This document shows positions 1,054 to 51,833 of a DNA stretch of 64,000 nucleotides, one piece after another. A model generated the notes under the pieces. It saw nothing but the letters and a program-made list of their open reading frames with translations, made no database searches and had not been told where the DNA came from. Numbering within the stretch: the stretch's first letter is position 1; each line of letters opens with the position of its first letter. Origin of the DNA: a virus. Lineage: Duplodnaviria > Heunggongvirae > Uroviricota > Caudoviricetes. The DNA lies in the IMG/VR virus record IMGVR_UViG_3300027692_000003, one strand, 5' to 3'. A program made the position numbers and the translations under genes.

Positions 1054-1638
1054 TCAGAACAGGGAGGGCTGGGCTGCTGCACGCTGGGCGGGTACGGCGG
1101 CTGCTATCTCCAGGTCGCCGTGCCAGGCGCGGATCCGCTCGCATTTGGCCCGCAGCCGCTCCTGGTCCGCATCCCACACCGGGACCAGCCCGGTGCCGTC
1201 GGCCGGCCACAGCATCGCGGTTTTCCGGCGCCGGCACCGGTCCGTGTTCTCCCGGTGCGTGACCGGCTCAGTGCACCACGGCCCGACATGCCGGCGGTGC
1301 GGATCCCCGGCACCGCCACGGCACTGCAGGTCCGCGGTGTGGCACAGGTGATCCATCTGCAGCCCGGCAGGGATCGGGACGAAGAAATGCTCCCAGGCGA
1401 CCCGGTGCGCGAGCAGTTTCCGCCCGCCGAGGGTGAAGGTGCCGTAGCCGCCCTTGTTGACCCCGGCGGTCCAGATCCAGCATCCGTCAGGGAGTATCTC
1501 TACCTTGGCCAGGAATCTGGCAAGGGTCCTGTCGTCCGTTGCGATCTGCCCCGTCTGCCCCGTCTGGGCGGTGCCCCGTCCCCTAGGAGTGGGTTCACCA
1601 CGTTCCAGGGGACGGGGTACCGCTATGTCCGGGACATC
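1054..1638 (-). CDS. HNH homing-type endonuclease; start codon unresolved
   Basis: Frame upstream of ATG 1356 reads LARFLAKVEILPDGCWIWTAGVNKGGYGTFTLGGRKLLAHRVAWEHFFVPIPAGLQMDHLCH...EPVTHRENT. Frame is open from a stop at 1639-1641; I found no in-frame ATG/GTG/TTG upstream of the domain. Confidence 0.8.
   Translation of the reverse strand, partial: DVPDIAVPRPLERGEPTPRGRGTAQTGQTGQIATDDRTLARFLAKVEILPDGCWIWTAGVNKGGYGTFTLGGRKLLAHRVAWEHFFVPIPAGLQMDHLCHTADLQCRGGAGDPHRRHVGPWCTEPVTHRENTDRCRRRKTAMLWPADGTGLVPVWDADQERLRAKCERIRAWHGDLEIAAAVPAQRAAAQPSLF
1568..1623. repeat. Long inverted repeat/hairpin between capsid gene and HNH
   Basis: gcggtgccccgtcccct (1568-1584) pairs with aggggacggggtaccgc (1607-1623) at 16 of 17 positions, with a 22-nt loop. 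Confidence 0.85.
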
Positions 1639-1703: not shown

Positions 1704-3077
1704 TCAGACCGCGACTCCGACCCGGCTTAGCCTGCCCAGATAACGAGTGGCCCGGGTCGCGAGGCACATATCCCCGATCAGCGCATACGGCAGCGTGTCC
1801 GGTGCGCTCGTGGTGGGATACACGTCCACAGGCATGCAGTCGCGCACCCAGGGGCGGATGATGTTGTTCCGGTCCCGGGATACCAGGTAGATGTTCTCCA
1901 GGCCGCTGGCGAGCGGGTACATCCCGGTGTTGGTGCCGTAGTACTGGATCGGCAGGGTCGCCGGGACCGTCGCGCCGTTCTGCGGGACCAGGGCCGCGCC
2001 GGTGTCGATGATCGACGTGGTGGTGTAGGGGGTGACCCCGTCGGACTGCAGCGCGAACGCCGCGTCGACATACCCCAGGAACGTCTCACCGCCGGATGCG
2101 GTACCGCGGTACACCTTGTAGGTGATCGCGGCCTGGGAGTCCTGGCCGGTCGGTGCCGAGAACGACAGGGTGATCGTGCTCGTTGCCGTCCCGGACCCGG
2201 ATTCCTGCGACACTTCCGCGCAGGGCAGGATCTCACCCTGACGGGCGATGACCGGGGAGATCTTGTAGTAGTACGTCGTCGACGCCGCGATGGAACCGCC
2301 GGTGGTCGCGGTCGTGGTCGTGACCGCGCCCATGGCATAGTTCCGGCTGGACAGGAAGCTCGTCTTGACCAGGGGAATGTCGCGGTAGGACGGGACGAGG
2401 AGACCAGCCTCGATCTCCACCTTGTCGTTGAACCGCTGCTGGTTCAGGAGCAGCTGCGCCACCTTGGAATGCGCGGTGTTCGACGCGACGATCATCCACG
2501 AGTCGTCGAACACGCTCATGGCGGCGTTCGACTCCACCATGTCGATCAGCTCATCGAAATGCGCGAGGGTCAGGGAGTTGCCGCCCTTGTCGATGGCGTT
2601 CTGGTACGCGCCGGAGTACTGGCTGATCTGGGTGTCGAACCCGTCGAACTGCGGGTGGGCGCCGTTGAGGGTGGATGCGGCGTTACCCCAGCAGATCGCG
2701 GTTTCCGCGTCCCAGTAGTAGCCCCGGATGGAGCCCTCGATTTCCGTCTGGCGCAGGTCCCCGATGACCTGCTGGGTGACTTCCTGCGCGAACCCGGTCA
2801 CGGCACCCACGACCTGCAGGTGAGCCATGTTGAACGAGTTCTGCACGAACGTCGAGTTGGTGACGGGCTGCGCGCCGCCGTCCTGGACGAAGCCGCCGTT
2901 GGCGACCTGGGTCCGCTGGTTGAAGTAGTACGTGTTCGATCCCCACCGCTGCGCCGGGATGGCGCGTACCAGGGGCGCGTAGCGGCGCTGGTACTCCAGG
3001 AGGATGGGGTCGATGATCTTGGGGATAAGGGCGGACGCGCCTGCGGCGGTCAGTGCTTCCCTGAGTTCGGAACTCAC
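1704..3077 (-). CDS. Major capsid protein with inserted Ig/FnIII-like domain
   Basis: 457 aa, directly downstream of protease/scaffold. N-terminus ALIPKIIDPILLEYQRRYAPL... is capsid-like. Internal beta-rich insert (TYYYKISPV...TITLSFSAP...YKVYRGTASGGETFLG...IIDTG). Confidence 0.85.
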   Translation of the reverse strand: MSSELREALTAAGASALIPKIIDPILLEYQRRYAPLVRAIPAQRWGSNTYYFNQRTQVANGGFVQDGGAQPVTNSTFVQNSFNMAHLQVVGAVTGFAQEVTQQVIGDLRQTEIEGSIRGYYWDAETAICWGNAASTLNGAHPQFDGFDTQISQYSGAYQNAIDKGGNSLTLAHFDELIDMVESNAAMSVFDDSWMIVASNTAHSKVAQLLLNQQRFNDKVEIEAGLLVPSYRDIPLVKTSFLSSRNYAMGAVTTTTATTGGSIAASTTYYYKISPVIARQGEILPCAEVSQESGSGTATSTITLSFSAPTGQDSQAAITYKVYRGTASGGETFLGYVDAAFALQSDGVTPYTTTSIIDTGAALVPQNGATVPATLPIQYYGTNTGMYPLASGLENIYLVSRDRNNIIRPWVRDCMPVDVYPTTSAPDTLPYALIGDMCLATRATRYLGRLSRVGVAV

Positions 3078-3296: not shown

Positions 3297-5417
3297 TCAG
3301 GCAGCCGGGCGGGACTTGTCCCGGAAGACATGGCCGAGCATCACGGTCCCGGCATGCTGGGTCCACTCGCTCTTGGTCATCTCGTGCGGTGCCTTGTCCG
3401 GGAAGGTGGCCGGCATCCCGTGCGCGTTCAGGCCCTCCTCCGGAGGGGTCTTCGCGGTGTGCTCGCTCACCGCGCCGCCCGCGGCCAGGCCCTTGCGGGC
3501 ACCGAGGCCGCCCGGCTGCTGGGTGAGCCGCTGGACTTCCTCGGTGACGCGCTCGCTGACGAGCCGGCCGATCCGCTCCGCCTCGGTTTCCGTGACCGCC
3601 GCCGCGGCGGCTGGTGCCGGGTCGGCTGCGGGGGCGGGGGCGGGCGCCGCCGCGGGCGCGGACTCCTGCGCCGGGGCCACGGGCGCCGGCCCGCGGGCTG
3701 CGGCGAGGAGCTGCGCGAACTGGTCACTGGTCAGCGTCACAGCTGCTGGTGCCGCTGTCTCCGTGGTGGCCGGGGCTGGGTCGGTGGTTGGGGCAGCGGT
3801 CTGCCCGGCCGCCTCACTGGTGGGCTCGCTCACAGCGGGCTCCTCTCCTTCGGGGGTGGCGGCGGCCGGATCGGGCGCCGGGGTATCGGTGGACTCTGCC
3901 GGGGGATCCGGCTCCGGGCCCTCGTCCGGGGCGGTCTCCGCCGCGCCGGCTGGCCCGGTCCCGTCCGGGCCTGCCGGTACCGGTGCAGGCTGCCCGGCCG
4001 GGGGTTCCGCCGGGGGTTCCGCCGGGGGCAGGCCGATCCCGGCCCGGAACTGGTTCAGGGTCCAGTCGCCGGACCGTTCACGGAGCTCACGGAACGTCGC
4101 CAGGTTCGCCGCGTCCTCCGCCGGCTCAGCGGGTGCGTCACCGTTGGGGTCGGAGTTCGGTCCGACGCCGGGCACGTCGACGTCACCGTCCATGTCGGGG
4201 TCGAGGGCGGCCAGTGCCTTGCAGGCGGCGTCCGCGGCGGCGCGGAGGATGACGTCCAGGTCGGCGGGGTCCATGCAGTACGACGACAGGTCCATGGTGA
4301 CCGGTCCGTTCGACGCACGGACACACCACGAGCCCGCGGTGGACGGGTTCCCGCCCATCCACTCGGTGACCGCCTCGGAGACCTGCCAGGCAGGGGCGAT
4401 CGTCCAGCCCTCAGCGGCGACGGTGACACCGAAGCCCTTGAGGGCCTTGATGATGCGGCCCTTGACCCGCTTCAGCTGCGCCGGGGTGTACGCCTTGGCG
4501 TTGTCACCCTGATTGATGAAGGACCACGCCGCTTTCGCTAGAACTTTCGAAGACACGTCGTAGCGCTGCTTCTTGTCCGCCTGATAGCCAGGGTCGGCCC
4601 AGACGTGGCCGGCACCGGACAGGCCAGAGTCCCGCTTGCCCATCGGCACCGTCGCCGAGGCCTCGGCCAGGCCGTTGCGGAGCACCGGGACAGGCTCGGC
4701 TGCGAGCAGGTCCCGGTAGGCAGCGGCGAGCCCGGCGAGAGCCGCTGCCGCTTTCGGATCGGCCGCGGCGATCCCTTCCGCCAGTCCGGTGGCGAGGGCC
4801 GCCCCGGGCCCGGGGGTTTCCTCGGTGAATGTCACCAGTGCCTCCGGGGCTGTCTCGGTGATGAGCACGCGGTCATCGGTTTCCGCCGTCTCGGTGGCGC
4901 CGCCGGCTGTGTCCTTCGCCCAGGCGAACGCGTCGATCCTGGCGCCCGGAACCCCCGGTGACTTCGTGTAGTCAATTCCGTACAGATTGAGATCGTCGGC
5001 GACCTCGACCGGCGACCCATCCGGTCCTGTCTCGCGGCGGACCTTCCCCACCCACGCACCCCGGATCGAGGTGTTCCGCAGGTAGGCGGGCCGGCCGTCG
5101 CTGGTGTCGACCAGGGCGGCGATCGTCCGGCCATGCTCGGTGTCGGCGATGTCCGCGGTGTACCGGGCTGACCCGTCCTCGGCGAGGGTCATCGAGGTGA
5201 CCCGCCCCGTGATCCTGGTCGAGTCATCCTCGGCCGCGTGATGAGTCAGGTTCGTCAGCGGCTCCTGCTGGCCGGTGAGATACATGCCCTCGCCGCTGAT
5301 CTGCTCCTGTGCCCGTGCGACCATCCGGGCGATCGCCTCACGGGTGTACAGGCGCCGGTTCAGGGAGACGCCGGGGACCAGCGCCACACCGCTGACGGTT
5401 GCTATGCGCCGTGCCAC
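3297..5417 (-). CDS. Prohead protease/scaffold fusion protein
   Basis: 706 aa. N-terminal protease-like region (GVSLNRRLY..., TSIRGAW...IDYTKSPGV), central DUF6582-like WADPGYQADKKQRY...AAWSFINQ domain, long Ala/Pro/Glu scaffold-like C-terminus; precedes capsid. Confidence 0.8.
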   Translation of the reverse strand: MARRIATVSGVALVPGVSLNRRLYTREAIARMVARAQEQISGEGMYLTGQQEPLTNLTHHAAEDDSTRITGRVTSMTLAEDGSARYTADIADTEHGRTIAALVDTSDGRPAYLRNTSIRGAWVGKVRRETGPDGSPVEVADDLNLYGIDYTKSPGVPGARIDAFAWAKDTAGGATETAETDDRVLITETAPEALVTFTEETPGPGAALATGLAEGIAAADPKAAAALAGLAAAYRDLLAAEPVPVLRNGLAEASATVPMGKRDSGLSGAGHVWADPGYQADKKQRYDVSSKVLAKAAWSFINQGDNAKAYTPAQLKRVKGRIIKALKGFGVTVAAEGWTIAPAWQVSEAVTEWMGGNPSTAGSWCVRASNGPVTMDLSSYCMDPADLDVILRAAADAACKALAALDPDMDGDVDVPGVGPNSDPNGDAPAEPAEDAANLATFRELRERSGDWTLNQFRAGIGLPPAEPPAEPPAGQPAPVPAGPDGTGPAGAAETAPDEGPEPDPPAESTDTPAPDPAAATPEGEEPAVSEPTSEAAGQTAAPTTDPAPATTETAAPAAVTLTSDQFAQLLAAARGPAPVAPAQESAPAAAPAPAPAADPAPAAAAAVTETEAERIGRLVSERVTEEVQRLTQQPGGLGARKGLAAGGAVSEHTAKTPPEEGLNAHGMPATFPDKAPHEMTKSEWTQHAGTVMLGHVFRDKSRPAA

Positions 5418-5896: not shown

Positions 5897-6310
5897 TCAG
5901 CGGCCGAACAGGGCGATCCCGGCACCGGTGAACGACCCGGTGCCGGCCGTCCACGCGATCTGGCCCCACATGGGCAGGACGAAGTTCGCGGTGGAGTAGC
6001 CGTGCATCCCGCCGGACACCCATTTCCCGGTGCTGCTCGCGGTGATCGCCGTGGTGGTCAGGAGGGGCCCGAACAGGTTCCCCTGGTCGTCATAGACGTT
6101 GAGTACGGCGACCAGGGACGGTGCGCCGCCCGCCGCGGTGCCGCCGTAGACGGACAGCCACACGTCGGTGACGTCCCGGAGGTCCACGGGGGTCTGGGCG
6201 GACGGGACACCCTGCCACGTACCGGAGTTCCCCGCCGCCGCCAGGGTCGTGGACGGCCCGGCGCTGGTCAGGGACCACAGGAGGCGGGCACACGGGTTGT
6301 AGATCGTCAC
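5897..6310 (-). CDS. Beta-rich virion structural protein
   Basis: GTG start at 6310 (VTIYNPCARLLWSLTS...); 137 aa, Thr/Gly/Ala-rich, within head operon. Confidence 0.6.
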   Translation of the reverse strand: MTIYNPCARLLWSLTSAGPSTTLAAAGNSGTWQGVPSAQTPVDLRDVTDVWLSVYGGTAAGGAPSLVAVLNVYDDQGNLFGPLLTTTAITASSTGKWVSGGMHGYSTANFVLPMWGQIAWTAGTGSFTGAGIALFGR

Positions 6311-6368: not shown

Positions 6369-6593
6369 TCACGGTGACGGGCTGGCCATCCGCGCGGCCT
6401 GGACCGCTGCCGCGTCCGGTGACTGCACGGGACGGCGGGGTTTTTCCCGCCACCGGTACGGCCGGAACTGGTTCGCGACCCGGACCGGTGCGATGAAGAT
6501 GGCCTGGTGCGGTGTCCCGGCCCAGATGGCCCGCCCGGCGAGCTGCCCTTCCCTGGACAGGCGAAGGACATCCGGCTCACGCAGATGCGGCAC
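6369..6593 (-). CDS. Hypothetical protein
   Basis: 74-aa ORF starting 4 nt after the previous stop, in operon orientation. Confidence 0.4.
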   Translation of the reverse strand: MPHLREPDVLRLSREGQLAGRAIWAGTPHQAIFIAPVRVANQFRPYRWREKPRRPVQSPDAAAVQAARMASPSP

Positions 6594-6596
6594 CTG

Positions 6597-8090
6597 CTAT
6601 CCCCCCAGCCCGAGGAACGATGCGGGGATCCGGCTGCGGGATACGAGACGGCACCTGCATCCGGGATGGCACGGGTACGCCGGGACCGTACTGGGGCTGT
6701 AGGGGCCGCCGTCCGCGTTGTCCTGGCATGCGGCACACGCGGACGCGCCCGCTTCCCAGGTGACCTCGATCAGGGCGCCGGTGACAGCAGCGGCCACCCG
6801 CCGCCACAGGGACAGTGCACCGCCGCCGATCGCGGCCCAGAGCCCGTTCCCGCCGAGGACGGCAACAGCCCGGACCTCGGTACCGCCCGCCGTCTGGACT
6901 GCGGCGCCCAGCATGTCCTCATAGGTGCCGTCGTCGGCGGCCTGCTTCGCGAGGACCCGGGCCAGGTCCACGGCCGCACCGGTGATGATGACGTCGAGGA
7001 GGTCCCTGGCCCGCCCCGGCAGCCCAGGATCGGCGGCGAGCCGGTCATACGCTGCCTGATAGGCGGCATCGGTGCCGAACCCGGTGTGGCCGTCCTGGGC
7101 CGCTGCCATCGCGAGTGCCCCGGCTTCGCCTTCCGCGGCGGCAGCCAGCAGTGCCGTCTCTATGGCGGCGAGGAGGGTGTCATGGCCGCGGGACTGGTAG
7201 ATGCCCCGCAGCCAGCCCAGCGCCACCGCGGTGGCCTCGGTCCTCCAGAACTCCTGGTCCGCGCTCTCGCGGGGGAGGTAGATGGCGGCCCGGTAGCGGG
7301 AGATCAGCTTCCGGGTGTTCAGGGAGTGGATGCAGGTACGCCATGCGTCCAGGATCACTGCGAGATGCGCGGCGAGGAGGGTGCCGGCGCGGGCCTGGAT
7401 CGCGGCCTGCTGGCCTTCGAGGAGGCCGATCGCCAGGATGGTCTCCAGGACAGCCGGGTCATCCCAGTGGCTGACGGCGAGGGCGGCGGCGGCGGTGCAC
7501 CCGGCGCGTACCCGGGGAGTCATCGGGCCGCCGGACAGTGCCCACCCTGCCGCGTATGCCTCGCGGGCCGCGGAAACCACGGCGGCATCGGGCTGTTCGC
7601 TGGCCGCGAACGGGTAGTCGGTGCGGTCGCTTCCGTGCATCACCGAGACCGCGGGGAAAGTCACCGGGATGGTGGCGAGGCGGCCGACCGGGTCCTCGCC
7701 GTCCGGGCCGAGGTAGGTGAGGGTCAGGTGCGGGCAGTACCCGTAGACGGACGGGGAGGTGATCCCGCGGGCACCCAGCCGGTCCGCGGCGTCGCGGTGC
7801 AGGTCGTCGAGGGCGGGTGAGCTGGCCAGGGCGACGATGACGTCCTGGTCCCCGCCGGTGAAGCGGGCGTGGCCGGAGATGACGGCGGTTACCGGATCGC
7901 GGCGGGCGAGGATCTCAGCGACCGCCTTCAGCGCCTGCGGGTCCACGCCGGCGGCGTCGCCGGTGTAGATGACGGTGCAGTGCAGGTCGCTGGCGTGGAG
8001 GCCGCCCGGGATGGCGAGGTCGGCGGCGAGGTCGGGTGGCGGGTAGAGGGCGATCATGCAGGACCCGGAGTAGTCAGGCTGGTCCGCCAT
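6597..8090 (-). CDS. 2H phosphoesterase (Acb1/2'-5' RNA ligase-like) fused to Mu-gpF-like minor head protein
   Basis: Start MADQPDYSG at 8090. Two HxT motifs (LHCTVIY, PHLTLTY) in the first ~160 aa; C-terminal CAACQDN...PAYPCHPGCRC typical of head-morphogenesis proteins. Confidence 0.8.
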   Translation of the reverse strand: MADQPDYSGSCMIALYPPPDLAADLAIPGGLHASDLHCTVIYTGDAAGVDPQALKAVAEILARRDPVTAVISGHARFTGGDQDVIVALASSPALDDLHRDAADRLGARGITSPSVYGYCPHLTLTYLGPDGEDPVGRLATIPVTFPAVSVMHGSDRTDYPFAASEQPDAAVVSAAREAYAAGWALSGGPMTPRVRAGCTAAAALAVSHWDDPAVLETILAIGLLEGQQAAIQARAGTLLAAHLAVILDAWRTCIHSLNTRKLISRYRAAIYLPRESADQEFWRTEATAVALGWLRGIYQSRGHDTLLAAIETALLAAAAEGEAGALAMAAAQDGHTGFGTDAAYQAAYDRLAADPGLPGRARDLLDVIITGAAVDLARVLAKQAADDGTYEDMLGAAVQTAGGTEVRAVAVLGGNGLWAAIGGGALSLWRRVAAAVTGALIEVTWEAGASACAACQDNADGGPYSPSTVPAYPCHPGCRCRLVSRSRIPASFLGLGG

Positions 8091-8153
8091 GCCAGCCTCC
8101 CCGCGCTCAGGAACCGGGGGACTGCCAGCTGCTCTGAAGCACACACAAGACAG

Positions 8154-8205
8154 GTGGCTTATTGTCGTGATTCTCTTGACAATAAGCCACGCGGGTAACT
8201 AGGCT
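8154..8205 (+). promoter_or_regulatory. Sigma70-type promoter overlapped by a 13-bp perfect inverted repeat
   Basis: gtggcttattgtc (8154-8166) / gacaataagccac (8178-8190); TTGACA at 8176-8181, 18-nt spacer, TAGGCT at 8200-8205. Confidence 0.7.
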
Positions 8206-8241: not shown

Positions 8242-8445
8242 ATGAGCGTCATCACCGAGGACCGGACCGCCGGCAGCCGCACGATCAGCGAGGACGACGC
8301 CCGCGCCGCCGCCGCGATCCTCGACCAGATTTACAGCGGTCACGCCGAGCAGGCCGACCAGCTCGCCGAGCAGGCCGGCCTCGGGGACCTGTCCGAGACC
8401 CAGCTGGAGCACCTGTGCGGCTTCTTCGGCGTGCCCCTGATCTAG
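8242..8445 (+). CDS. Small acidic hypothetical protein (counter-oriented cargo gene)
   Basis: 67 aa, RBS aggagg, own promoter. Confidence 0.7.
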   Translation: MSVITEDRTAGSRTISEDDARAAAAILDQIYSGHAEQADQLAEQAGLGDLSETQLEHLCGFFGVPLI

Positions 8446-10477: not shown

Positions 10478-10868
10478 CGCCCGTGTCTTCCGCCGGCCCG
10501 GGCCAGCACCTGGTGGGGGTGTCCGCGTAAACCTCGGAACGGTACGGGCTGCCCGGAGAGATGTAGTCACCGGCTCGTGCCGGCGGGAAAAGCGGCCCCG
10601 TCCAGGAGTCGAGGTACACCGGCCCGGCCGCTACCCCGGGCGTGATACCGGCCGTCATCCGGTCCGGCGGGGTCATCCCTATCGTGCCGGGAAAAGCCAC
10701 GGTCGCTGCGGGAGGGAACGTGATCGTCCGGTAGTACCGCGGCACCTGGGCTGTGGTGCCCCGCGGCGGCTTCAGCGGGTCATGCCCGGTGCAGCCGTAC
10801 CGGGTGCCGGCACCCCAGCCGTACTCGCACACGGCGGGTGCGGTGCAGTCACTGCAGGCCGTGTTCAC
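10470..10868 (-). CDS. Phage hypothetical protein (CxxC N-terminus)
   Basis: GTG 10868 overlaps the stop of the DUF2829 gene; VNTACSDCTAPAVCEYGWG. Confidence 0.55.
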   Translation of the reverse strand: MNTACSDCTAPAVCEYGWGAGTRYGCTGHDPLKPPRGTTAQVPRYYRTITFPPAATVAFPGTIGMTPPDRMTAGITPGVAAGPVYLDSWTGPLFPPARAGDYISPGSPYRSEVYADTPTRCWPGPAEDTGDV

Positions 10869-11155
10869 AGGTCCCCCAGGGGTGCCGCGGACGCGGCAAT
10901 AGGCGTCCAGTCGGCGGCGAGCAGGTCCGCGTGGGCGGGTGCCCAGGGCACGAACGCCCCGGACGGGGTGCGCAGCATCAGGTACGGCGAGAACGTCGCG
11001 GTACCCGCGCCGGCGGACTCCCTGACCGGGCCGGAGAAAATCCGGTCCCCTGGCAGGCTGAATCCTGGCGAGAGCGCCACCCACTGGCCGTACCAGCCGG
11101 CCCGGGCAGCCTTGCCGCCGGCACGCAGCACCGCGAGCGCTTCACCGAAATCCAC
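10865..11155 (-). CDS. DUF2829 / Thoeris anti-defence Tad2-family protein
   Basis: MDFGEALAVLRAGGKAARAGW...YLMLRTPSGAFVPWAPAHADLLAADW matches the family pattern FGEAL..L..G....R.GW / PW..S..D.LA.DW. Confidence 0.8.
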   Translation of the reverse strand: MDFGEALAVLRAGGKAARAGWYGQWVALSPGFSLPGDRIFSGPVRESAGAGTATFSPYLMLRTPSGAFVPWAPAHADLLAADWTPIAASAAPLGDL

Positions 11156-11170: not shown

Positions 11171-12463
11171 TCACCGGCATGTCCGGGTCAGTGCCTGCGA
11201 GGTGAGCTCGGCGACCGCCCCGGCCGGGGCGTCGCTGCGCTTGCATGCCTCGATGACATCGGCGGGGGAGATGCCGTCGAGGTCCGGGATCATGCCCGGG
11301 GTGATGGCATCGCGGTCATACCAGCGGGTGATCAGTTCCCTGACCTGGACGCTTCCGGCGTGCCCGAAATGCTCTACGAGGTCGACGCGGCCGGAGCGGA
11401 TCACCGCGGGGTCGATCGCCTCGGGGGTGTTGGTGGTCAGGACGGTGAGGAGGCCGTGGGGAGTGCCGATCCCGTCGAGGGCGTTCAGCAGCCCGGACAG
11501 GGTGGCCTTGTCGACCCCGTCGTCGTCACGCTGGGTCGCGGCATGGAACACGTCGACGTCTTCGAGGAGCAGCATGGACCGGGGCCCGATCCGGTTCGCG
11601 ACCCGGAGCAGCTCCCCGTCTTTCTTGACGTCGGCGAGGGGCAGGTACCAGACGTCCATCCCGAAATGGGACGCGATCGCCCTCGCTACCGAGGTTTTCC
11701 CGGTCCCGGGGGGCCCTTCGTAGAGGTGGCCGCGGTGCCACGGGATGCAGCGGCGGCCGTACTCGGCTTCGGCGGCGAGGAACCGGCCGACATCGGCGGT
11801 GAGCCGGTCCAGCTGCCCGGCGGGGAGGATGACGCTGTCCAGGGTGCGGGCGGGCACGTCGTCGAGGCGTTCCCAGTCACCCCACTTGTCGAGCATCCTG
11901 AACGCCGGCATGCTTTTCCGCTGGTGGCTGCGCTGCACGACACGGCTGATCTCAGCGAGGAGCGCGTCCCGGGCAGCGGCGGAGGTCATGGTGAACACGA
12001 TCTCCGGTGGTTTCCACGGCCGGTCCTCGGTCCCCCCGGCGGGGATGCTGACGGAGACCCGGATCTTGCAGCCGCCGATCCTGACGGCCTGCTCCCGTGC
12101 CCCGTCGTAGCGGAGCCTGACCGCCGCCGCCTCTGGTACGGCGGGCCGGCCGGAGCTGGACATGGGGATGCATTCGCCGCGGCGGGACGTCCACGCGACG
12201 AGGGCACGCTGATCCTGGCGGGGCAGCAGCCCCAGCACCCATTCATGCAGCTCGTCGTATACGTCGTCGCTGCCGGGGACTTTCACCGTATAGGTGGCAC
12301 GGTCCCGGTACCTGGCACGGGCAGCCCTGGCGAGCGGCAGGGCCATCTGCCCGGCGGCGAGGGCCAGGGCGACGCGTGGTGCGCGTTCCCGGAGGACCGA
12401 CACCAGGTCAGCGGCGGGCCGGTCCCCGGAAGTGGCGGCCTGGGCGGGGTGGTCAGCTGTCAT
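11171..12463 (-). CDS. BCS1-like AAA+ ATPase
   Basis: RGHLYEGPPGTGKT (Walker A), LLLEDVD (Walker B), TLSGLLNALDG, TTN, DPAVIRSGRVD. Confidence 0.9.
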   Translation of the reverse strand: MTADHPAQAATSGDRPAADLVSVLRERAPRVALALAAGQMALPLARAARARYRDRATYTVKVPGSDDVYDELHEWVLGLLPRQDQRALVAWTSRRGECIPMSSSGRPAVPEAAAVRLRYDGAREQAVRIGGCKIRVSVSIPAGGTEDRPWKPPEIVFTMTSAAARDALLAEISRVVQRSHQRKSMPAFRMLDKWGDWERLDDVPARTLDSVILPAGQLDRLTADVGRFLAAEAEYGRRCIPWHRGHLYEGPPGTGKTSVARAIASHFGMDVWYLPLADVKKDGELLRVANRIGPRSMLLLEDVDVFHAATQRDDDGVDKATLSGLLNALDGIGTPHGLLTVLTTNTPEAIDPAVIRSGRVDLVEHFGHAGSVQVRELITRWYDRDAITPGMIPDLDGISPADVIEACKRSDAPAGAVAELTSQALTRTCR

Positions 12464-12523
12464 GATTCCTTCGCTAGTCGGCAGTGTCGAGCGGGAGGCC
12501 CAGCGCGGTGCAGGTGACGGCGG

Positions 12524-12742
12524 TCACCAGGCAGGATCGCGGCTGACATGGAACGGCCTCGCGCATCGCAGTGCCGTCTGCCGGAAGATCTGCACGTCAT
12601 TTCCGGGCTTTGCGGGGGGCAAAGGTACCTGCACCACGTAGTCGCGGCCCTCAGCCCAGCCACGTGCGGCCAGGACGGAAACCACGGAGCGCGGGACCAC
12701 CAGCGGGGCCGGTGCACTGCCGAGGGTGAAGCAGCCCATCAT
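12524..12742 (-). CDS. Hypothetical protein
   Basis: 72 aa, ATGA overlap with the methyltransferase stop. Confidence 0.5.
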   Translation of the reverse strand: MMGCFTLGSAPAPLVVPRSVVSVLAARGWAEGRDYVVQVPLPPAKPGNDVQIFRQTALRCARPFHVSRDPAW

Positions 12743-14373
12743 GCCTCCAGCCCGAACATGGCTGGCTGGACAGCCTTGGACAGCCGTACGCAGGTCAGTG
12801 CGAGTGCCTGCGGGTCACGGTCGACCAGGATCGCGCCGAAGCCATCCAGGGCCGCAGCCTCACCTGTGGTCCCTGTTCCGCTGAAGGGATCCAGGACCAG
12901 GCCACCCGGTGGTGTCACGAGCCGGATAAGCCAGCGCATCAGCTCGAGCGGCTTCACTGTCGGCCACGCCGTGCCGTCCTCGAGGCGGGGACGTTCCGAC
13001 GCTGGGGCCTTGGCCTGATACCGGAAGGCCGGGAAGAAGCGGGACGCGCCCCCGGTGTCGGCGTAGCCTTCCGTGAAGGATCCCGCTGGCCGCGATTCAT
13101 AGCCGAAAGCGGCACTCTGGTTGCCGTCACGGTCAGCGCCGCTTTTCCGCTTCGCCCGCACGATGCCGCCGGTAGGACGTGCACCGGACTGCCGGTCAAG
13201 TTCAGCTACCGGGCAGTCATTCGCGCACGACCACGCCTCGACCGTCTCCATGCCGTCCGCATCCTGATAGCCGCGCATCTCCGACTTATCCTGGCCGCCG
13301 ATCTGGCCGTAAGCGTCGCGGTGTCCCTCCGGAGCGCTGGAACCTGGAGTGTTGGCGCCTTTCACGCGCCGCGTCCCGGTCATCTCGCAGGCTGCTGAGT
13401 GAGTCAGCAGGATGTTCGGCGGCCAGCGGCCAGCATCATGCGAATGTCCCGGAGTCATGCCGAAGTCCATCGCGCGAGTGCGGTTGCCCTCATGACCGCG
13501 ATCCCCCGGTGCATCGTAGCCTCCGCTGCCCATCCGGCATCCGTCGATGTTCAGCGCGCCCGTGCCGTGCTCCAGAACGTTCGCCGCCACGGTCCCGGCC
13601 AGAGGCTTGCGTGCGACGATGACCGGCTCATGTGCTGGCTTGAGTGCGGTTCCCCAGCCATCCCAGCGGGCGGCGTCCTCGGTGGCGGGGGCGGTCAGGT
13701 CATAGTCCTCAGCGCCGATGCCCACGGGGCCGATGGCCGAGCGCGTCCCTTTCCCCTTGGCGCAACTCAGGACGGCGCGCTCCAGACGTCCCCAGTCTTC
13801 TGGGGCAAGGTGGGCCTTGAACTCCTCCCACCACTTATCGCCAGGCGAGTGGCCTTCCTTCGTCCAGTCGTCGAGGTTGCGGCCTGGCACGTTCATGCCA
13901 AGCTCTACCGCCATCAGCACGTAGTCGCGACGTTTCACTTTGTCGATGGCCTTGGACACGTCCAGTGATTTCGGGAAGCCACTGCCGTATATCCAGTGGA
14001 TCGAATCGCGGATATCGAACCCCGCGTCCTCGATGCCGCACGCCAGCCGGTGCCATGTCCGCGTGCCGCCGAACGCCAGCAGGTGCCCGCCGGGCTTGAG
14101 CACCCGCAGGCACTCTGCAGCCCATGCCTGGCACCATGCCTGGAACGGCTGGCCTGCGACGTACGCCTCTGGCGTCGAAGTGACCGACTTGCCGTCAGCG
14201 GGGTTGGTCCGCTGGTCGACCCGCGTCCGGATCCGTGCAGCGGACGGCTTGAACGTATCCCAGCTACGGTGCATGAATTCCAGGCCATATGGCGGATCGC
14301 AGACGACCGCGTCCACGCTCGCGCTTGCCAGCGGCAGGCGGGAGGCGTCCCCGCGAAGAACGACGACGCTCAC
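12739..14373 (-). CDS. DNA N6-adenine/N4-cytosine methyltransferase (beta-class arrangement)
   Basis: VVCDPPYG catalytic motif near the N-terminus, LKPAHEPVIVARKP, and VLDPFSGTGTT SAM-binding motif at the C-terminus. Confidence 0.92.
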   Translation of the reverse strand: MSVVVLRGDASRLPLASASVDAVVCDPPYGLEFMHRSWDTFKPSAARIRTRVDQRTNPADGKSVTSTPEAYVAGQPFQAWCQAWAAECLRVLKPGGHLLAFGGTRTWHRLACGIEDAGFDIRDSIHWIYGSGFPKSLDVSKAIDKVKRRDYVLMAVELGMNVPGRNLDDWTKEGHSPGDKWWEEFKAHLAPEDWGRLERAVLSCAKGKGTRSAIGPVGIGAEDYDLTAPATEDAARWDGWGTALKPAHEPVIVARKPLAGTVAANVLEHGTGALNIDGCRMGSGGYDAPGDRGHEGNRTRAMDFGMTPGHSHDAGRWPPNILLTHSAACEMTGTRRVKGANTPGSSAPEGHRDAYGQIGGQDKSEMRGYQDADGMETVEAWSCANDCPVAELDRQSGARPTGGIVRAKRKSGADRDGNQSAAFGYESRPAGSFTEGYADTGGASRFFPAFRYQAKAPASERPRLEDGTAWPTVKPLELMRWLIRLVTPPGGLVLDPFSGTGTTGEAAALDGFGAILVDRDPQALALTCVRLSKAVQPAMFGLEA

Positions 14374-14741: not shown

Positions 14742-15020
14742 TCAGTACCTGGGAGCTGGTAAGGCTCCTCCTGCTGCGGCTGGCCCATCTGCGTCACCGT
14801 CCTCGCCAGGCCGGGCTTCTCCCATGGCACGCAGGTGCGCCCACAGGGCCAGGTTCTGGCGGTCAGCCTGCACCGCGTCATCGTCCTCGCCCGGCCGGAC
14901 GTCCCAGCAGTACGTGCAGGCAATCCACTGGCCGCTGGCCAGGCGCTTGTCCCGTACCGCCCGGATCGCCTCGGCATCGCAGTCCTGGCAGAGCGGGCGG
15001 CATCCGCATACGTGGCTCAT
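14742..15020 (-). CDS. Small Zn-finger protein carrying a copy of the portal C-terminal motif
   Basis: CGC, CQDC and CTYC motifs, then DDAVQADRQNLALWAHLRAM (14/20 identical to portal DDAVLVDRQNLVLWAQMRDM); ATGA overlap with the portal stop. Confidence 0.65.
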   Translation of the reverse strand: MSHVCGCRPLCQDCDAEAIRAVRDKRLASGQWIACTYCWDVRPGEDDDAVQADRQNLALWAHLRAMGEARPGEDGDADGPAAAGGALPAPRY

Positions 15021-16663
15021 GCGGCGGGGAGGTCCCGGAGCGCCTCAGAGAGGCGTGCCTGGTAGGCGGCGTACCGGATCCGCCATGCCTCATCGGGTTC
15101 CGCGGCGGGTTTCCCGGCCGGTGCTTTCCTGCCCGCCGTCGGCTTGCCTGCAGGTGCTGCCTTCCCCTGCCCCCGCCCCTGCTGCTGGTCCTTGCCGGTG
15201 TCGTCGTCCTGGTCCCCGTCAGGTTCCGGTCCCTGGCCAGGTGCGGGCGGGGCGGGGCCGGCTATAGCCAGAGGGGCGCTGCCCTTGCTGTCGATCATCG
15301 CCTGGGACATGTCCCGCATCTGGGCCCACAGGACCAGGTTCTGCCGGTCGACCAGCACTGCGTCATCGCCGCCGGCTACGGGCGGTTCCCCGATCTCTGC
15401 CCTATACCTGTTCAAAGTCCAGGACCCGTTGCGGAGCCGGCTGTCCCGGATTACCTCGATGGTCTGGGAGTCCCGGAGGTCGATGTCCTTGAATTTCAGG
15501 TGCCAGCCGGTGACCTTGAAACCCTGCTTGGCGAGGTGGAAGTTCAGTTTCTCCAGCACCAGTTCAGCGGTCGGCTGGCACGTGTTGACCTGGAATGTTC
15601 GGTTCTGGTCTTCCCCGGTGCCCCCGCCGATGTTCCCGCTTTCGATGATCCCGGCTTTAGCCGGGGGGACACCGTAGCCGGCGACGATCTCGTCGCGGCA
15701 CTGGTCCTTGAACAGCAGGACGTCGGCGACTTTCCCGAACTGCAGCTCGACGATCTTCCCGCCGTTTTTGGTGACGACGGGGCGGCCCATGTTCCGGGGT
15801 CCGACGTTCCGGGCCATGTGCTGGGAAACCCACCGGTTGATGTCGCCGTCCGACATGCCCTGCGGGAAGTCGACATGGAAAATCGACGGGAGGCCCTTGC
15901 GGAACATCTCCTTGCCGCACGACGCCGCGAACAGCCACCCCGTGATGGGCAGCAGGGCGGCCTGTGTCGCGGAGATCCCGAACACCCCCGAGCGGGGGGC
16001 GTCGAGGGCGATGTGGATGACCTCGCGGGGCTCGAACTCGGCACGCTGCCCGAACTCGGTGACCTGCACGTACTTCGTGATGATGCCGTGCTCGTCCGCT
16101 ACCGGGGTGGTGGTGGGGCAGTCCAGGTTGTAGAGGGCGACGGGGATGTCCCCCACCCAGGAGACCTCGATGTAGGCGTCGCCGAACACTTCGAGGTCGG
16201 TGATGACGTTGCGGAGCAGCTGCCGGATATCGGAGGTCGGGTTGCAGAACCCGATCAGTCTTTCGAGTGCGAGGACCTGCGGTGGCTTGTCGGGCTGCTG
16301 CTGGTCCCCTTCGCCGTCGTCCCGGTCCCAGTCCATGACGAGGCCGCCGGCGGTGATGGTCCGCGCGATCGCGTTCACCGACGCCCACGACCACGGGCAT
16401 GCCAGGTACGCCTCGTACAGTTCCTGCATGAGGCTGCGGCGGTCAGTCTGAGTACTGGTCCCCATCGCGGACGTGTACTCGTTCATCCCGCCGCGCGGGA
16501 TCCCCGTCACGTACCCGGCCCGTTCCGGGACCTTCGCCTGCCTGGCCGCCAGGGCGGGGGCAGCCTCCCGGATCTGCCACGAGTACCAGTCGGAGCGGAC
16601 GGGGCGGGCTGCGGCTACCTGCTCGACCAGGGTCGGGGAACGGACAGCGACATCAGCGGCCAT
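15017..16663 (-). CDS. Phage portal protein
   Basis: 548 aa, downstream of terminase; HK97-type portal features (EVIHI, G.S...AA, K.G...L.., GVPP...G, WTLNRYRAEIGEPP). Confidence 0.92.
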   Translation of the reverse strand: MAADVAVRSPTLVEQVAAARPVRSDWYSWQIREAAPALAARQAKVPERAGYVTGIPRGGMNEYTSAMGTSTQTDRRSLMQELYEAYLACPWSWASVNAIARTITAGGLVMDWDRDDGEGDQQQPDKPPQVLALERLIGFCNPTSDIRQLLRNVITDLEVFGDAYIEVSWVGDIPVALYNLDCPTTTPVADEHGIITKYVQVTEFGQRAEFEPREVIHIALDAPRSGVFGISATQAALLPITGWLFAASCGKEMFRKGLPSIFHVDFPQGMSDGDINRWVSQHMARNVGPRNMGRPVVTKNGGKIVELQFGKVADVLLFKDQCRDEIVAGYGVPPAKAGIIESGNIGGGTGEDQNRTFQVNTCQPTAELVLEKLNFHLAKQGFKVTGWHLKFKDIDLRDSQTIEVIRDSRLRNGSWTLNRYRAEIGEPPVAGGDDAVLVDRQNLVLWAQMRDMSQAMIDSKGSAPLAIAGPAPPAPGQGPEPDGDQDDDTGKDQQQGRGQGKAAPAGKPTAGRKAPAGKPAAEPDEAWRIRYAAYQARLSEALRDLPAA

Positions 16664-17021: not shown

Positions 17022-18623
17022 TTACAGGAACGGGGACTGCTGCACGCCACGTTTCGGCCGGTCAGTGTCATCCCCGGTCCAGAATTCGGGCTCGATCCAC
17101 TGGCCGTCGCGGGGCACCACGACCATCGCCGGGTTCATCGGCACGTACTCCCCGAGGACATCACCAGGCGCCGGCTTGGGCTCGTCGCCGATGACGGGGT
17201 ACCGGGGGCCGGTTCCGAGGTTCAGCAGCCAGTACCTGAGGTCGTCCATCAGGTGATCGGGAGCATCGGAGTTGGCGTCTTCCGGATCACCCTTGGTGGC
17301 GTGCGGGAGGTTCTCCAGCTCCCACCAGGTCTTGGTCAGGGTCCGGAAGAAGTGGATCATCGGGCACTCAGCCCACCCGAGTGCGCGGTGATGCGGGCAC
17401 GCGGGTCCGTCGGCCAGGTAGGTGTGGATCCGCTGCCAGCCCGCCACCCGCGAGCCCGGTCCCTTGCCGGCCGGGGTGAGGTGCACGCCGTTCTCGGCAT
17501 AAACCTGCGAGATCGGCTTCGCCTCGCCGCGGGTTGCCCACATCGCATCGTCACCGAGGCGGATGGTGATCTGCTCATCGTCGGTCTCGGCGGCGAGGAT
17601 CCGCTTCGCCTGGTCCGACTCCAGGACGCCGGCCTCGTAGATCTCCCTGTAGGCGTATGCCCTGCCGTCCTCATCGACGGCGCCCCACAGCACGGCCCAT
17701 GGCTTGGTGAAACCCCAGTCAACGGTGGAGTAGCGGCGCCACGACGATGGCAGCCGGAACGGGTCGATGACGTGCCGGTCCCACCGGATCTCCGGGAACA
17801 TCTGGCCGGCGAACTGTCCCCAGTCGCCATCGCGCATCGCCGCCCGCCGCGCGGGATCCTTGATCGAGTCGAGGCGGTGGCGGTAAGCGGCATCGAGGTA
17901 GGGATTATCGGTGGCCTTCGCCGGGATGAACCGCCGGGTCAGGCCGTGCTCATCGGTGACGACCTCGGCACCGCGCCCGGTCGGCTCCACATAGCGGTCC
18001 TTGACCTCGCCGTGTGAGGGGCCGCCGGGGTTGCTGGTCGACCTGATCCCCAGGACCGGGATACCGCGCGAGGAGCGGAGCCGTTCCAAGGCGATGACGT
18101 CAACCACGCCGGGAGGCAGGAGCGTACGTTCATCAACACACAGGAGCTGGTAGGCGCCCCCCTGGCGCTTGCTCGCATCCTCCAGGTTGTCCATGTACCG
18201 GAGCCGGATGACCGACCGGTTCAGGAAGGTCAGTTCCTTCTCGGTCTTGTTCCAGGACGCACCGAGCGCCCTAGCCCAGCTGATCTGCTGGAACTCCGGG
18301 TACACGCTCTCGGCGAGCTCGTCATAGGTACGACGCAGGATCAGGACCCGGATGCCCGGATACCGGACGCAGGCCCTGACGGATTCCATGACGATCGCGC
18401 AGGTCTTGCCGCCACCCGCCGCGCCGCCATAGAGGACGTCATCCTCGGTGGCGGCGTGGAAGAGTTCCTGCGGGCACTGGCCGCACGGCTCGGGCAGCCC
18501 GAGGTCGCCGCGGAGCTTCGCCGCGACGCGCGGCTTGCACGTCGGCTCGTAGCCGAGGATCTCGAACGCGTTGTCCGGCGGGTCCAGCTGGTCGGCGAGC
18601 GATGAGGCAAAGCCGGTCGCCAC
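17022..18623 (-). CDS. Terminase large subunit
   Basis: Start GTG 18623 (VATGFASS). YGGAAGGGKT Walker A, LCVDE Walker B, STSNPGGP, nuclease VDWGF...DHLMDDLRY. Confidence 0.95.
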   Translation of the reverse strand: MATGFASSLADQLDPPDNAFEILGYEPTCKPRVAAKLRGDLGLPEPCGQCPQELFHAATEDDVLYGGAAGGGKTCAIVMESVRACVRYPGIRVLILRRTYDELAESVYPEFQQISWARALGASWNKTEKELTFLNRSVIRLRYMDNLEDASKRQGGAYQLLCVDERTLLPPGVVDVIALERLRSSRGIPVLGIRSTSNPGGPSHGEVKDRYVEPTGRGAEVVTDEHGLTRRFIPAKATDNPYLDAAYRHRLDSIKDPARRAAMRDGDWGQFAGQMFPEIRWDRHVIDPFRLPSSWRRYSTVDWGFTKPWAVLWGAVDEDGRAYAYREIYEAGVLESDQAKRILAAETDDEQITIRLGDDAMWATRGEAKPISQVYAENGVHLTPAGKGPGSRVAGWQRIHTYLADGPACPHHRALGWAECPMIHFFRTLTKTWWELENLPHATKGDPEDANSDAPDHLMDDLRYWLLNLGTGPRYPVIGDEPKPAPGDVLGEYVPMNPAMVVVPRDGQWIEPEFWTGDDTDRPKRGVQQSPFL

Positions 18624-18634
18624 GCGGTCTCGTC

Positions 18635-19219
18635 CTAGGCCGCCGCGGGGGCCAGCCGGAGATGCCGGGCCACCAGGGTGCGCGCCTCGCGCTGCTTCTC
18701 GACAGGAAGGCCCATCTCCCCGAGGGCTGCGGTCAGGGCGGCCACCGTCATCGCCGCCTGCTGCTCGGTAACCTTGGTGAGCCGTTCCTCGATGTTCAGC
18801 TTGGCGATGTCGACCAGCAGCCGCCCGCACCGGTCCATGGCCCGCTCCAGGACGGCGACCTCGGCGCGGAGCTGCTCGCTGCTGCTCTCGCCTCCGCTTT
18901 CGTACCGGATGGAGCCGAGCTTGTTGACGAGTTCCCCGATGGTCTCCTCAAGCGCCAGGGCGCGGCCGGCGAGGCGCTGGAGGGCTTCGAGAGGGTCGTT
19001 GACCGGTCCCGCGTCATGCTTGTACAGGAGCTGCCGGGCCTGCTCGTTGATGGCGGCGATGCGGTTGCCCGGCATGCATCCGCCGTGCAGCTTGCACTGG
19101 CCGGCTCCGGCGTGGTCGGTGCCCCAGCCGGCCGGGCGGGTGCAGGTGCCTTCCCCCTGCTTCTTCTTCGCGCCGCACTTGGGCTTGTCATGGCGTGGCC
19201 CGGAAGCGGCTGCTGTCAT
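18635..19219 (-). CDS. Putative terminase small subunit (HGG-motif protein)
   Basis: CGAKKK..G..CTRPAGWGTDH.G.GQCKLHGG N-terminus, helical C-terminus; directly upstream of TerL. Confidence 0.75.
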   Translation of the reverse strand: MTAAASGPRHDKPKCGAKKKQGEGTCTRPAGWGTDHAGAGQCKLHGGCMPGNRIAAINEQARQLLYKHDAGPVNDPLEALQRLAGRALALEETIGELVNKLGSIRYESGGESSSEQLRAEVAVLERAMDRCGRLLVDIAKLNIEERLTKVTEQQAAMTVAALTAALGEMGLPVEKQREARTLVARHLRLAPAAA

Positions 19220-47414: not shown

Positions 47415-48890
47415 TCAGTCTGTCGTAGTGTCCATCGCTCCGAGAGATGATGCAATTGCAGCGAACTGGTCCAGAGCCGCTTGCAGGTCCTCGACGATCT
47501 CGGCGGCAATCAGCTCTGGAGCTGGCAGGTTACCGGTATCCTCCAGCGATTCGTCGCGGAGCCAGAAGATGTCCAGGGACGCCTTATCTCTCGCGGCCAG
47601 CTCGTCATAGGAGAACGCCCTGAACCGCTCCGTCTCCGTGCGCTCGTGGCGGTCCGCCGGGTTGTAGCAGGCCACGAAGTCATCAAGGTCCGTCCGCACG
47701 AGAGCCCGGGTCTTCAGCGTGAAGTTCTGGTTGGTGCGGAAGTCGTAGATCCACAGCTTCTGCGTCCACGGGTTCTCCGACGGCGGCTTGCGGTCGAAGA
47801 GCAGCACGTTCGCCTTCACGCCGCCCGCGTAGAAGATCCCGGTCGGCAGCCGCAGGAGGGTGTGCACGTCGCACTGCTCCAGCAGCTGTCTCCGTACCGT
47901 CTCGCCCGCGCCGCCCTCGAACAGGACGTTGTCGGGTACGACAATGGCGGCGCGACCGTTGATGGTGAGCAATGACCGGACGTGCTGGAGGAAGTTGAGC
48001 TGCTTGTTGGAAGTAGTCGCCCAGAAGTCCTCGCGGAGGTAGCTCATCTCCTCCCGTTCGGTCTCGCCCTGGGCGTTGACCACCTTGTAGGAGGACTTCC
48101 TGCCGAACGGCGGATTGGTCAGTACCATGTCGAAGTGGTCCGACGGAGTGGACCTGAGCGAGTCATCCACGGTGATCAGGCTCGGACTTTCCGGTGCACT
48201 GATCCCGTGAAGCAGGAGGTTCATGGCGCACAGCCGAGCGGTTGCATCGACGATCTCCCAGCCTCGCAGCGCCACGTCCCGGAGGAACCTCTTCTCGTCC
48301 GGGTCAAGGCTGCCTGACTTCATCTGCTCGTAGGCGGCCAAGAGGAAGCCCCCAGTGCCAGCCGCCGGGTCGCATACCCGCATGGATGCCGTTGGCCGCA
48401 TGACATCCACGATGGCCTTGATCAGCGGGCGCGGGGTGAAGTACTGGCCTGCGCCTGACTTGACGTCCTCGGCGTTTTTGGCGAGCAGCCCCTCGTAGGC
48501 ATCGCCTTTGACATCCGCGTCGAGTGTCATCCACTGCTCGCGGTCGATCAGGTCGGAGACGAGCCGCTTCAGCTTCGCCGGGTCTTGGATTTTGTTCTGC
48601 GCCTTGCGAAAGATGACACCCAGGGTGCCGGGCCATTTGGCGAGTTCAGCCAGGACGTGCCGGTAGTGAACCTCAAGGTCGTCACCGTCCAGACGCACCA
48701 ACGATAGCCAGTCGAGGCCCCTCGGAACGATCGCAGGTCTGCTGAAAGGTGGGTGCGCCTGCTCATCGGCCATCTTTAGGAAGAGCAAAAAGGTTAGTTG
48801 TTCGATGTAGTCCTGGTATGACAGCCCATCGTCCCGTAGGACACTACAGTAGTTCCAGAGCTTCTGCACGATGGTGGCACTGTCGCTCAT
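47415..48890 (-). CDS. hsdM: Type I R-M methyltransferase subunit
   Basis: IVQKLWNYC.VLRDDG..Y.DY.EQLT.LLFLK, GAGQYFTPRPLI, DPAAGTGGFL, TNPPFG, AAIVVPDNVLFEGG. Confidence 0.97.
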   Translation of the reverse strand: MSDSATIVQKLWNYCSVLRDDGLSYQDYIEQLTFLLFLKMADEQAHPPFSRPAIVPRGLDWLSLVRLDGDDLEVHYRHVLAELAKWPGTLGVIFRKAQNKIQDPAKLKRLVSDLIDREQWMTLDADVKGDAYEGLLAKNAEDVKSGAGQYFTPRPLIKAIVDVMRPTASMRVCDPAAGTGGFLLAAYEQMKSGSLDPDEKRFLRDVALRGWEIVDATARLCAMNLLLHGISAPESPSLITVDDSLRSTPSDHFDMVLTNPPFGRKSSYKVVNAQGETEREEMSYLREDFWATTSNKQLNFLQHVRSLLTINGRAAIVVPDNVLFEGGAGETVRRQLLEQCDVHTLLRLPTGIFYAGGVKANVLLFDRKPPSENPWTQKLWIYDFRTNQNFTLKTRALVRTDLDDFVACYNPADRHERTETERFRAFSYDELAARDKASLDIFWLRDESLEDTGNLPAPELIAAEIVEDLQAALDQFAAIASSLGAMDTTTD

Positions 48891-51318: not shown

Positions 51319-51696
51319 GACGCCGACACATCCGTCACCTTCCCGGGCATCGCGGCTATTGTCCCATCCGTACGGCGGTGGGTGCGCGGCATACTCGCCG
51401 ATTCCCCCCGCACCGACGACATGGAGCTCATCGCCTCCGAACTCGCAACCAACGCGATCAGGCACACCCCGTCCGGGACCCCGGGCGGCTCGTTCACGGT
51501 CACGGTACGGACCGGACCCGCGTGGGCCAGGCTCGAAGTCGCCGATACCGGGACCGGGGTGTGGTCCGCCCCGGAGGGCCAGGACCACGACGCCGAGTAC
51601 GGGCGCGGCCTGGAGATCGTCGCGATCGTGGCCGACAAGCTCGGCCACGACATCGGGCCGGCATGCCAGGTCATGTGGGCAGAGGTCCTCTGGTAA
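51289..51696 (+). CDS. HATPase_c anti-sigma-like ATP-binding protein (AbaA-like); 5' end uncertain
   Basis: TFPG....V..VRRWV, ELIASELATNAIRH, RLEVAD.G, EYGRGL.IV...AD..G; N-terminus abuts the hsdR fragment head-to-head. Confidence 0.8.
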   Translation: MYGLGERGVHDADTSVTFPGIAAIVPSVRRWVRGILADSPRTDDMELIASELATNAIRHTPSGTPGGSFTVTVRTGPAWARLEVADTGTGVWSAPEGQDHDAEYGRGLEIVAIVADKLGHDIGPACQVMWAEVLW

Positions 51697-51833
51697 GCCG
51701 CAGCACCGCACACCGGAGGGTTTTACCGCCGCTTACGGGCGCCTTACCCTATAGTGTGCGGACGGCCACAGACCGGTTATCACCTACGAGACAGTCGGCC
51801 AGGACCTCGCAGCCGGCGACTACAGTGAACCGC

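Follow-up and report, generated by a model that had tools for sequence, protein, structure and literature searches.

A 2H phosphoesterase in one chain with a MuF-like head protein in a metagenomic Caudoviricetes phage: a candidate head-packaged enzyme against immune signalling

The 64,000-nucleotide stretch of the IMG/VR virus record IMGVR_UViG_3300027692_000003 (Caudoviricetes), referred to below as the window, carries on its minus strand a gene encoding a protein of 497 amino acids (aa), in which an N-terminal 2H phosphoesterase domain is joined to a predicted MuF/SPP1-gp7-type head-morphogenesis domain. The gene is genuine, and the 2H-MuF fusion that an earlier note on this DNA had described was confirmed. 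The favoured reading, to which a probability of about 0.4 is assigned, is that the enzyme is packaged in the phage head and degrades nucleotide messengers of host immunity. The features of the gene are listed below.

6597-8090, minus strand: whole coding sequence, 497 aa, 2H phosphoesterase plus MuF-like head protein (open reading frame and translation)
8096-8102, minus strand: Shine-Dalgarno-like GGGGAGG, 5 nt 5' of the ATG (read from the sequence)
7596-8090, minus strand: 2H phosphoesterase domain, residues 1-165 (PF13563 match, model and fold matches)
7974-7982, minus strand: first catalytic motif, H37-C-T39 (conservation in relatives)
7722-7730, minus strand: second catalytic motif, H121-L-T123 (conservation in relatives)
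6600-7580, minus strand: MuF/SPP1-gp7-like head-morphogenesis region, residues 171-497 (homology, model and fold matches)
6636-6953, minus strand: stretch equivalent to Phage_Mu_F, approximately residues 380-485 (collinear alignment with the homologue P0134)
6651-6737, minus strand: CxxC...HPxCRC putative zinc knuckle, C452, C455, H475, C478 and C480 (conserved columns and PHROG matches)

The Pfam model PF13563 of the 2H clan covered residues 32-130 of the N-terminal domain (E = 7.2e-11; 42.8 bits vs. a cut-off of 27). H37, T39 and H121 were invariant in 26 close relatives and 52 distant multi-domain relatives, and residue 123 of the second motif was threonine or serine across the relatives. 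The AlphaFold model of residues 1-170 (predicted local distance difference test, pLDDT, 93.7) showed the 2H fold, and the Foldseek and VIA searches matched it to cyclic phosphodiesterase (CPDase)/LigT, Usb1, VP3 and Acb1 proteins. Enzymes of the 2H group are metal-independent and use acid-base catalysis through an HxT/HxT tetrad, and some of them hydrolyse 2',3'-cyclic phosphates. Since the catalytic residues are invariant in the relatives, the domain is predicted to be catalytically intact and very probably active; on the same grounds, the idea of a dead structural remnant was rejected. Acb1 opens 3'-5' bonds through a 2',3'-cyclic intermediate (Hobbs 2022, PMC9117128).

Stand-alone proteins of ~340 aa, encoded at an equivalent genome position, are homologues of residues 171-497 (56-57% identity). 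In the model of this part (pLDDT 94.3), a small beta knuckle comes after a helical body. Nearly all of its BFVD matches were named minor capsid, head morphogenesis or MuF-like proteins, with modest scores (E = 3e-4 to 1e-2; template modelling (TM) score 0.3-0.5), and the structure search returned no solved structure resembling the C-terminal model. The Pfam family PF04233 (Phage_Mu_F) matched 10 of 35 family members (best E = 2.3e-6; 26-27.5 bits vs. a cut-off of 29.6), spanning the final ~100 residues in the homologues P0068, P0073 and P0105. Within the knuckle, C455, H475, C478 and C480 are invariant, C452 is kept in at least 90% of relatives, and the 'head morphogenesis' families phrog_1657 and phrog_8089 match residues 449-484. 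The order portal, MuF, scaffold/capsid was found in the window and in the loci L002-L004; in a Streptomyces prophage, the homologue lies immediately after the portal gene and before the scaffold-like and capsid genes, which is the classical MuF position. SPP1 gp7 and Mu gpF (PF04233) share with the 2H-MuF protein the HPxCRC-type C-terminal knuckle, a gene placed between the portal and scaffold/capsid genes and, at modest match scores, a predicted fold resembling the BFVD minor capsid and head morphogenesis proteins. The 2H-MuF protein differs from them in its highly diverged MuF region and in its enzymatic N-terminal module, which gp7 and gpF do not have. On these grounds, the C-terminal part is classified, by prediction, as a diverged MuF/SPP1-gp7-type head-morphogenesis domain. 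Three features that the earlier note had read from the letters were confirmed, namely the two HxT motifs, the Mu-gpF-like Cys/His motif near the C-terminus, and the location inside the head operon. The gene lies between the portal gene and the genes for the protease/scaffold-like and major capsid proteins.

An additional observation concerns the knuckle. In the homologues P0122, P0133 and P0027, an intein (Hint_2, Intein_splicing) is inserted at an identical point just before the first Cys of the CxxC, which serves as the +1 residue of the three inteins. Inteins usually occupy functionally important sites.

According to the comparative analysis, the 2H domain is an accessory, swappable module on orthologous MuF proteins. 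To fit a tree of the MuF part from 35 sequences, the module must have been gained or lost at least 5-6 times. The closest proteins without it (P0038, P0039 and P0041) are sister to the window protein, and at the P0039 locus no 2H coding capacity was found in any frame within 9 kb. The exact 2H-MuF architecture was found in more than 100 clusters, mainly from Streptomyces-type prophages and soil phages. The exhaustive search for the 2H domain retrieved 2,641 cluster representatives at E <=0.001, including 904 at E <=1e-10; the domain is placed at the start, in the middle or at the end of proteins ranging from 160 to 3,693 aa. Partner domains were counted in a sample of 52 multi-domain 2H relatives, the distant relatives referred to above. 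Pfam portal models gave 11 matches (PF04860 5, PF06074 5 and PF06381 1), and MuF and prohead protease 3 each; further partners were the effector domains ADP-ribosyltransferase (ART), NUDIX and P-loop kinase, and topoisomerase IB. The protein P0134 (1,288 aa) combines a portal (PF04860), a 2H and a MuF domain (PF04233) in a single chain; its 2H domain is 55% identical to that of the window protein, and its MuF domain (residues 1159-1263; 49.6 bits vs. a cut-off of 29.6) is collinear with the corresponding stretch of the window protein. In P0250 (1,638 aa), MuF, 2H, Zeta-type kinase and ADP-ribosyltransferase domains form a single chain. Of the indirect evidence that the 2H module may travel with the portal and capsid, these head-protein fusions are the strongest.

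The following mechanism can be proposed. By analogy with SPP1 gp7, the MuF/gp7-like part would dock on the portal during procapsid assembly, and a few copies per capsid would be enclosed and then exit with the DNA, as suggested by the same precedent. The 2H enzyme would enter the next host at infection, and late in the producing cell it would also be abundant. There, it would destroy phosphodiester immune messengers, which might be cyclic di- or trinucleotides of the type used by the antiphage signalling system based on cyclic oligonucleotides (CBASS), cyclic oligoadenylates of type III CRISPR, or 2'-5'-linked signals. SPP1 gp7, of which each capsid holds 1-2 copies, is a portal-binding protein (PMC5576092), and the analysis suggests that the 2H-MuF protein probably travels in the virus particle. 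Packaging and ejection are steps that we infer, and the substrate is the least secure of all; it would be either immune messengers or RNA 2',3'-cyclic ends. Viral 2H enzymes are known to degrade immune messengers (PMC9117128; bioRxiv 10.1101/2025.08.21.671373). The immune-messenger reading is favoured because the module is fused to head proteins, is swappable, has a Tad2-like gene and methyltransferase genes as neighbours, lacks RNA-ligase partners and shows a sequence link to T4 Acb1. A tentative proposal is that a functional phosphodiesterase enters the cell from the particle along with the DNA, and that CBASS- or type III CRISPR-type signals are degraded before phage gene expression. If true, the protein would be the first virion-borne anti-signalling enzyme to be demonstrated, alongside the Tad2-like candidate sponge encoded in the same late-strand block.

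The link to T4 Acb1 was drawn from profile comparison. The hhalign probability for the 2H family was 86.9% against T4 Acb1 (E = 4e-6; 108 columns spanning both motifs and taking in the N-terminal D-[YF]-S stretch) vs. 12.8% over 26 columns against E. coli ThpR. In the alignment with T4 Acb1, F77 lies one column off W74, and an aromatic residue comes before the second HxT motif. The T4 and FBB1 Acb1 proteins (PF23474; PDB 7T26, 7T27) resemble the 2H-MuF domain in the 2H fold, the HxT/HxT tetrad and the size of ~150-165 aa. The Foldseek ranking was different: the top ranks were taken by D. radiodurans CPDase, E. coli LigT and T. thermophilus LigT (E ~1e-7; TM score 0.60-0.67), and Acb1 entries ranked below them (E ~3e-5 to 9e-5). 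A sequence-profile search of PDB did not separate the two families, with PH0099 (LigT-like; E = 0.013) next to BCSR5 Acb1 (E = 0.015). Thus, the structural ranking favours LigT/CPDase, whereas the sequence profiles favour T4 Acb1. LigT/ThpR and D. radiodurans CPDase (PDB 5H7E, 1IUH, 5LDI) show 13-18% sequence identity to the 2H domain and are stand-alone cellular enzymes not linked to virions. The label 'Acb1-like' used in the earlier note is weakly supported, by the hhalign result, and 'an Acb1' would not be a fair name. The interpretation offered there is partly supported.

Several points weigh against the favoured reading. The Pfam model of Acb1 (PF23474) scored 21.7 bits on the 2H domain, which is below its cut-off of 27. 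The ligand residues of Acb1 are the stacking Y12, W74, F107 and W147, together with E141 and the lid 145-152 (Hobbs 2022, PMC9117128); in the hhalign alignment, the column of the base-stacking Y12 is occupied by an invariant methionine (M12), and the alignment ends at residue 127, with the C-terminal lid, W147 and E141 not placeable. The substrates of viral 2H enzymes differ sharply, two structural groups having cleaved none of 18 messengers (Doherty et al., bioRxiv 10.1101/2025.08.21.671373). As published assays make clear, the fold of a 2H enzyme does not reveal its substrate. In the C-terminal part of the window protein, no Pfam family was detected at E <=0.01, PF04233 included. As to packaging, the complex prediction for the portal and the MuF part scored 0.36 vs. 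0.00 for the best of three controls, which lends weak support to portal binding but is no more than a weak pass: of 80 solved complexes 58 attained this mark, as did 2 of 110 mismatches, and scores of 0.60 or lower included only 7 of the 80 solved complexes but both passing mismatches. The prediction runs agreed in at least 26% of contacts, with a partner pLDDT of at least 79. According to our own rough kinetic estimate, 1-3 enzyme molecules per cell (~nanomolar) would clear a micromolar signal slowly, and the one to a few copies in a virion may fail to clear it; much of the benefit may therefore come from unpackaged late protein. The N-terminal position of the 2H cargo is the reverse of that in most described MuF effector fusions. 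In the literature on Acb1 with MuF, or on MuF with anti-defence functions, no experimental test of this fusion class was found.

The main rival of the immune-messenger reading is RNA-end healing, in which the domain, injected or made late, would act as a LigT/ThpR-type 2',3'-cyclic phosphodiesterase on ends left by metal-independent host RNases (anticodon nucleases, HEPN/Csm6-type effectors and toxin RNases), so that damaged tRNA or mRNA would be restored or neutralised. The Foldseek order, with CPDase/LigT first, agrees with it, as do the Pfam counts among the 52 distant relatives, where PF02834 (LigT_PEase) matched 19 and PF23474 (Acb1) matched 4 at E <=1e-5. Kinase co-fusions point in the same direction: a Zeta-toxin-type P-loop kinase was found in 7 of the 52 relatives and AAA_33 in 3. 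Such 2H-kinase chains recall tRNA ligases, in which a kinase and a CPDase form a healing pair. On the window protein itself, however, PF02834 gave no match at E <=1 on the 2H domain, and the short, low-probability alignment with E. coli ThpR also speaks against it. No RNA ligase, Pnkp or tRNA gene was seen in the window or in the four loci compared; the tRNA scan of the window was negative and lends no support to a tRNA-repair module. Moreover, this 2H type was never seen linked to RNA ligases by Iyer et al. (PMC5512222), and little RNA could be repaired by a few injected molecules. RNA-end healing is less probable than the immune-messenger reading.

Unlikely, in turn, is an enzyme that is not delivered. 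The fusion would then couple the 2H domain to late expression and head assembly, the protein would be left unpackaged or the enzyme cut off by the prohead protease, and it would act solely in the producing cell, e.g., when signalling defences are set off by capsid proteins. In keeping with this explanation, the gene is preceded by a ribosome-binding site of its own and by an intergenic region that contains an inverted repeat, the low virion copy number in our estimate implies that most activity would come from unpackaged protein, and the portal-binding prediction was a weak pass. Nevertheless, fusions of this 2H clade to portal, MuF and prohead protease proteins recur in many lineages, and physical incorporation fits them better than co-expression.

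An offensive effector, that is, a Usb1-like RNase or toxin acting on host RNA after injection like the MuF polymorphic toxins and polyvalent proteins, is improbable: it was one of two options considered by Iyer et al. 2017 for MuF- or portal-fused 2H domains (PMC5512222), and relatives share chains with ADP-ribosyltransferase toxins (P0250), but MuF toxins carry the toxic domain at the C-terminus, with an immunity gene after it (PMC5576092), whereas the enzyme here is N-terminal. A small open reading frame (6369-6593) and a 137-aa gene (5897-6310) downstream were considered as immunity genes and rejected; the ~137-aa gene is not a 2H-specific immunity gene because it also lies beside orthologues without 2H.

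The 2H-MuF design and its anti-immunity role are already in print, as sequence-based predictions of 2017 and 2022. For 2H domains fused to MuF or portal proteins, a Usb1-like RNase role or the degradation of defence-activating nucleotides was proposed (Iyer et al. 2017, PMC5512222), and such fusions were later taken to suggest head packaging and injection, countering SMODS, cyclic-mononucleotide and CRISPR signalling (Iyer et al. 2022, PMC9503650). The window protein agrees with this class (PMC5512222, PMC9503650) in having 2H and MuF in one chain, in being encoded in a head module, and in never occurring beside RNA ligases; relatives have portal, protease, ART, NUDIX and kinase domains as fusion partners. 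It differs in its minimal two-domain form, with the enzyme N-terminal and the MuF knuckle at the extreme C-terminus, and in belonging to a subfamily restricted for the most part to Streptomyces-type prophages and soil phages. The MuF polymorphic toxins of temperate phages (Jamet et al. 2017, PMC5576092) are alike in using MuF as the carrier of a variable enzymatic domain; their cargo is C-terminal and precedes an immunity gene, whereas the 2H-MuF protein has its cargo at the N-terminus and no evident 2H-specific immunity gene.

As a sequence finding, the window protein is one more example of this published class. If the favoured reading is true, an enzyme preloaded in the capsid would act without delay, and the list of injected counter-defence proteins would extend to second-messenger immunity. 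Injected counter-defence proteins are known, among them T4 Alt, IPI* and P1 Dar. To our knowledge, every anti-CBASS, anti-Pycsar and anti-type III enzyme proven to date is made after infection begins. The family is large and Streptomyces hosts are cultivable, which makes the predictions of 2017 and 2022 directly testable.

The reading frame begins with an ATG at 8090 and ends with a stop codon at 6597-6599 on the minus strand, and the alignment places the start residue at the same point in the homologues. An identical protein is recorded on a 165,194-bp ENA metagenome scaffold that includes the window. The G+C content of the window is ~70%. The INPHARED search with the protein and 20 kb of DNA gave a single protein match of 31% identity, from an uncultured phage, and no DNA match. 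Because the named relatives of the portal and 2H-MuF proteins come from Streptomyces, Kitasatospora and Streptosporangiaceae, the predicted host is a Streptomyces-like actinobacterium, and the phage appears to be a large one. The intergenic region that separates the 2H-MuF gene from a divergent 67-aa gene on the plus strand (8242-8445) contains an inverted repeat (CTTATTGTC ... GACAATAAG) at 8160-8200, a possible operator.

The head module is encoded on the minus strand in the order of large terminase, portal, DNA methyltransferase, AAA ATPase, Tad2-like protein, several small genes, 2H-MuF, DUF6582 protease/scaffold-like protein, major capsid protein and HNH endonuclease. Its annotated members are as follows.

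17022-18947, minus strand: large terminase (phrog_979, E = 6.9e-29; PF03237)
15017-16663, minus strand: portal, the presumed docking partner (PF04860, E = 6.7e-23; phrog_12, E = 2.9e-42)
11171-14373, minus strand: DNA N6/N4 methyltransferase of 544 aa (phrog_67, E = 9e-66) and AAA ATPase of 430 aa (phrog_7485, E = 5e-52)
10865-11155, minus strand: Tad2-like (DUF2829) gene, 96 aa (PF11195, E = 1.7e-16; 61 bits vs. a cut-off of 25)
3297-5417, minus strand: protease/scaffold-like head protein, DUF6582 (phrog_207, E = 1.2e-5; PF20223, E = 2.3e-6)
1704-3077, minus strand: major capsid protein (phrog_752, E = 4.3e-36)
1054-1638, minus strand: HNH endonuclease, immediately following the major capsid gene (phrog_826, E = 1.3e-25)

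The methyltransferase and AAA ATPase genes form an insertion that parts the portal gene from the remaining head genes, and the Streptomyces prophage relative is without it. The Tad2-like gene lies 3 kb upstream of the 2H-MuF gene, on the portal side and in the same late-strand block, and its product is a candidate signal sponge. A DUF6582 gene also follows the MuF gene in the loci L002-L004. Two of these, the related soil-phage contigs L003 and L004 (116 and 186 kb), have the same head skeleton with many small genes interspersed on both strands, and the portal-to-MuF interval appears to be a hotspot of accessory genes. The small genes within the L003 and L004 head modules include those with Uma2, SprT-like, DUF6011 and AbiEii-like domains.

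Several DNA methyltransferase genes were found in the window. One of them is a solo type I HsdM methyltransferase (PF02384, E = 5.6e-64), located on the minus strand within 47415-51732 beside a gene whose product has the EcoEI R C-terminal domain alone (PF08463, E = 1.5e-37). The G+C content of this stretch is lower, at 0.58-0.64 vs. ~0.70.
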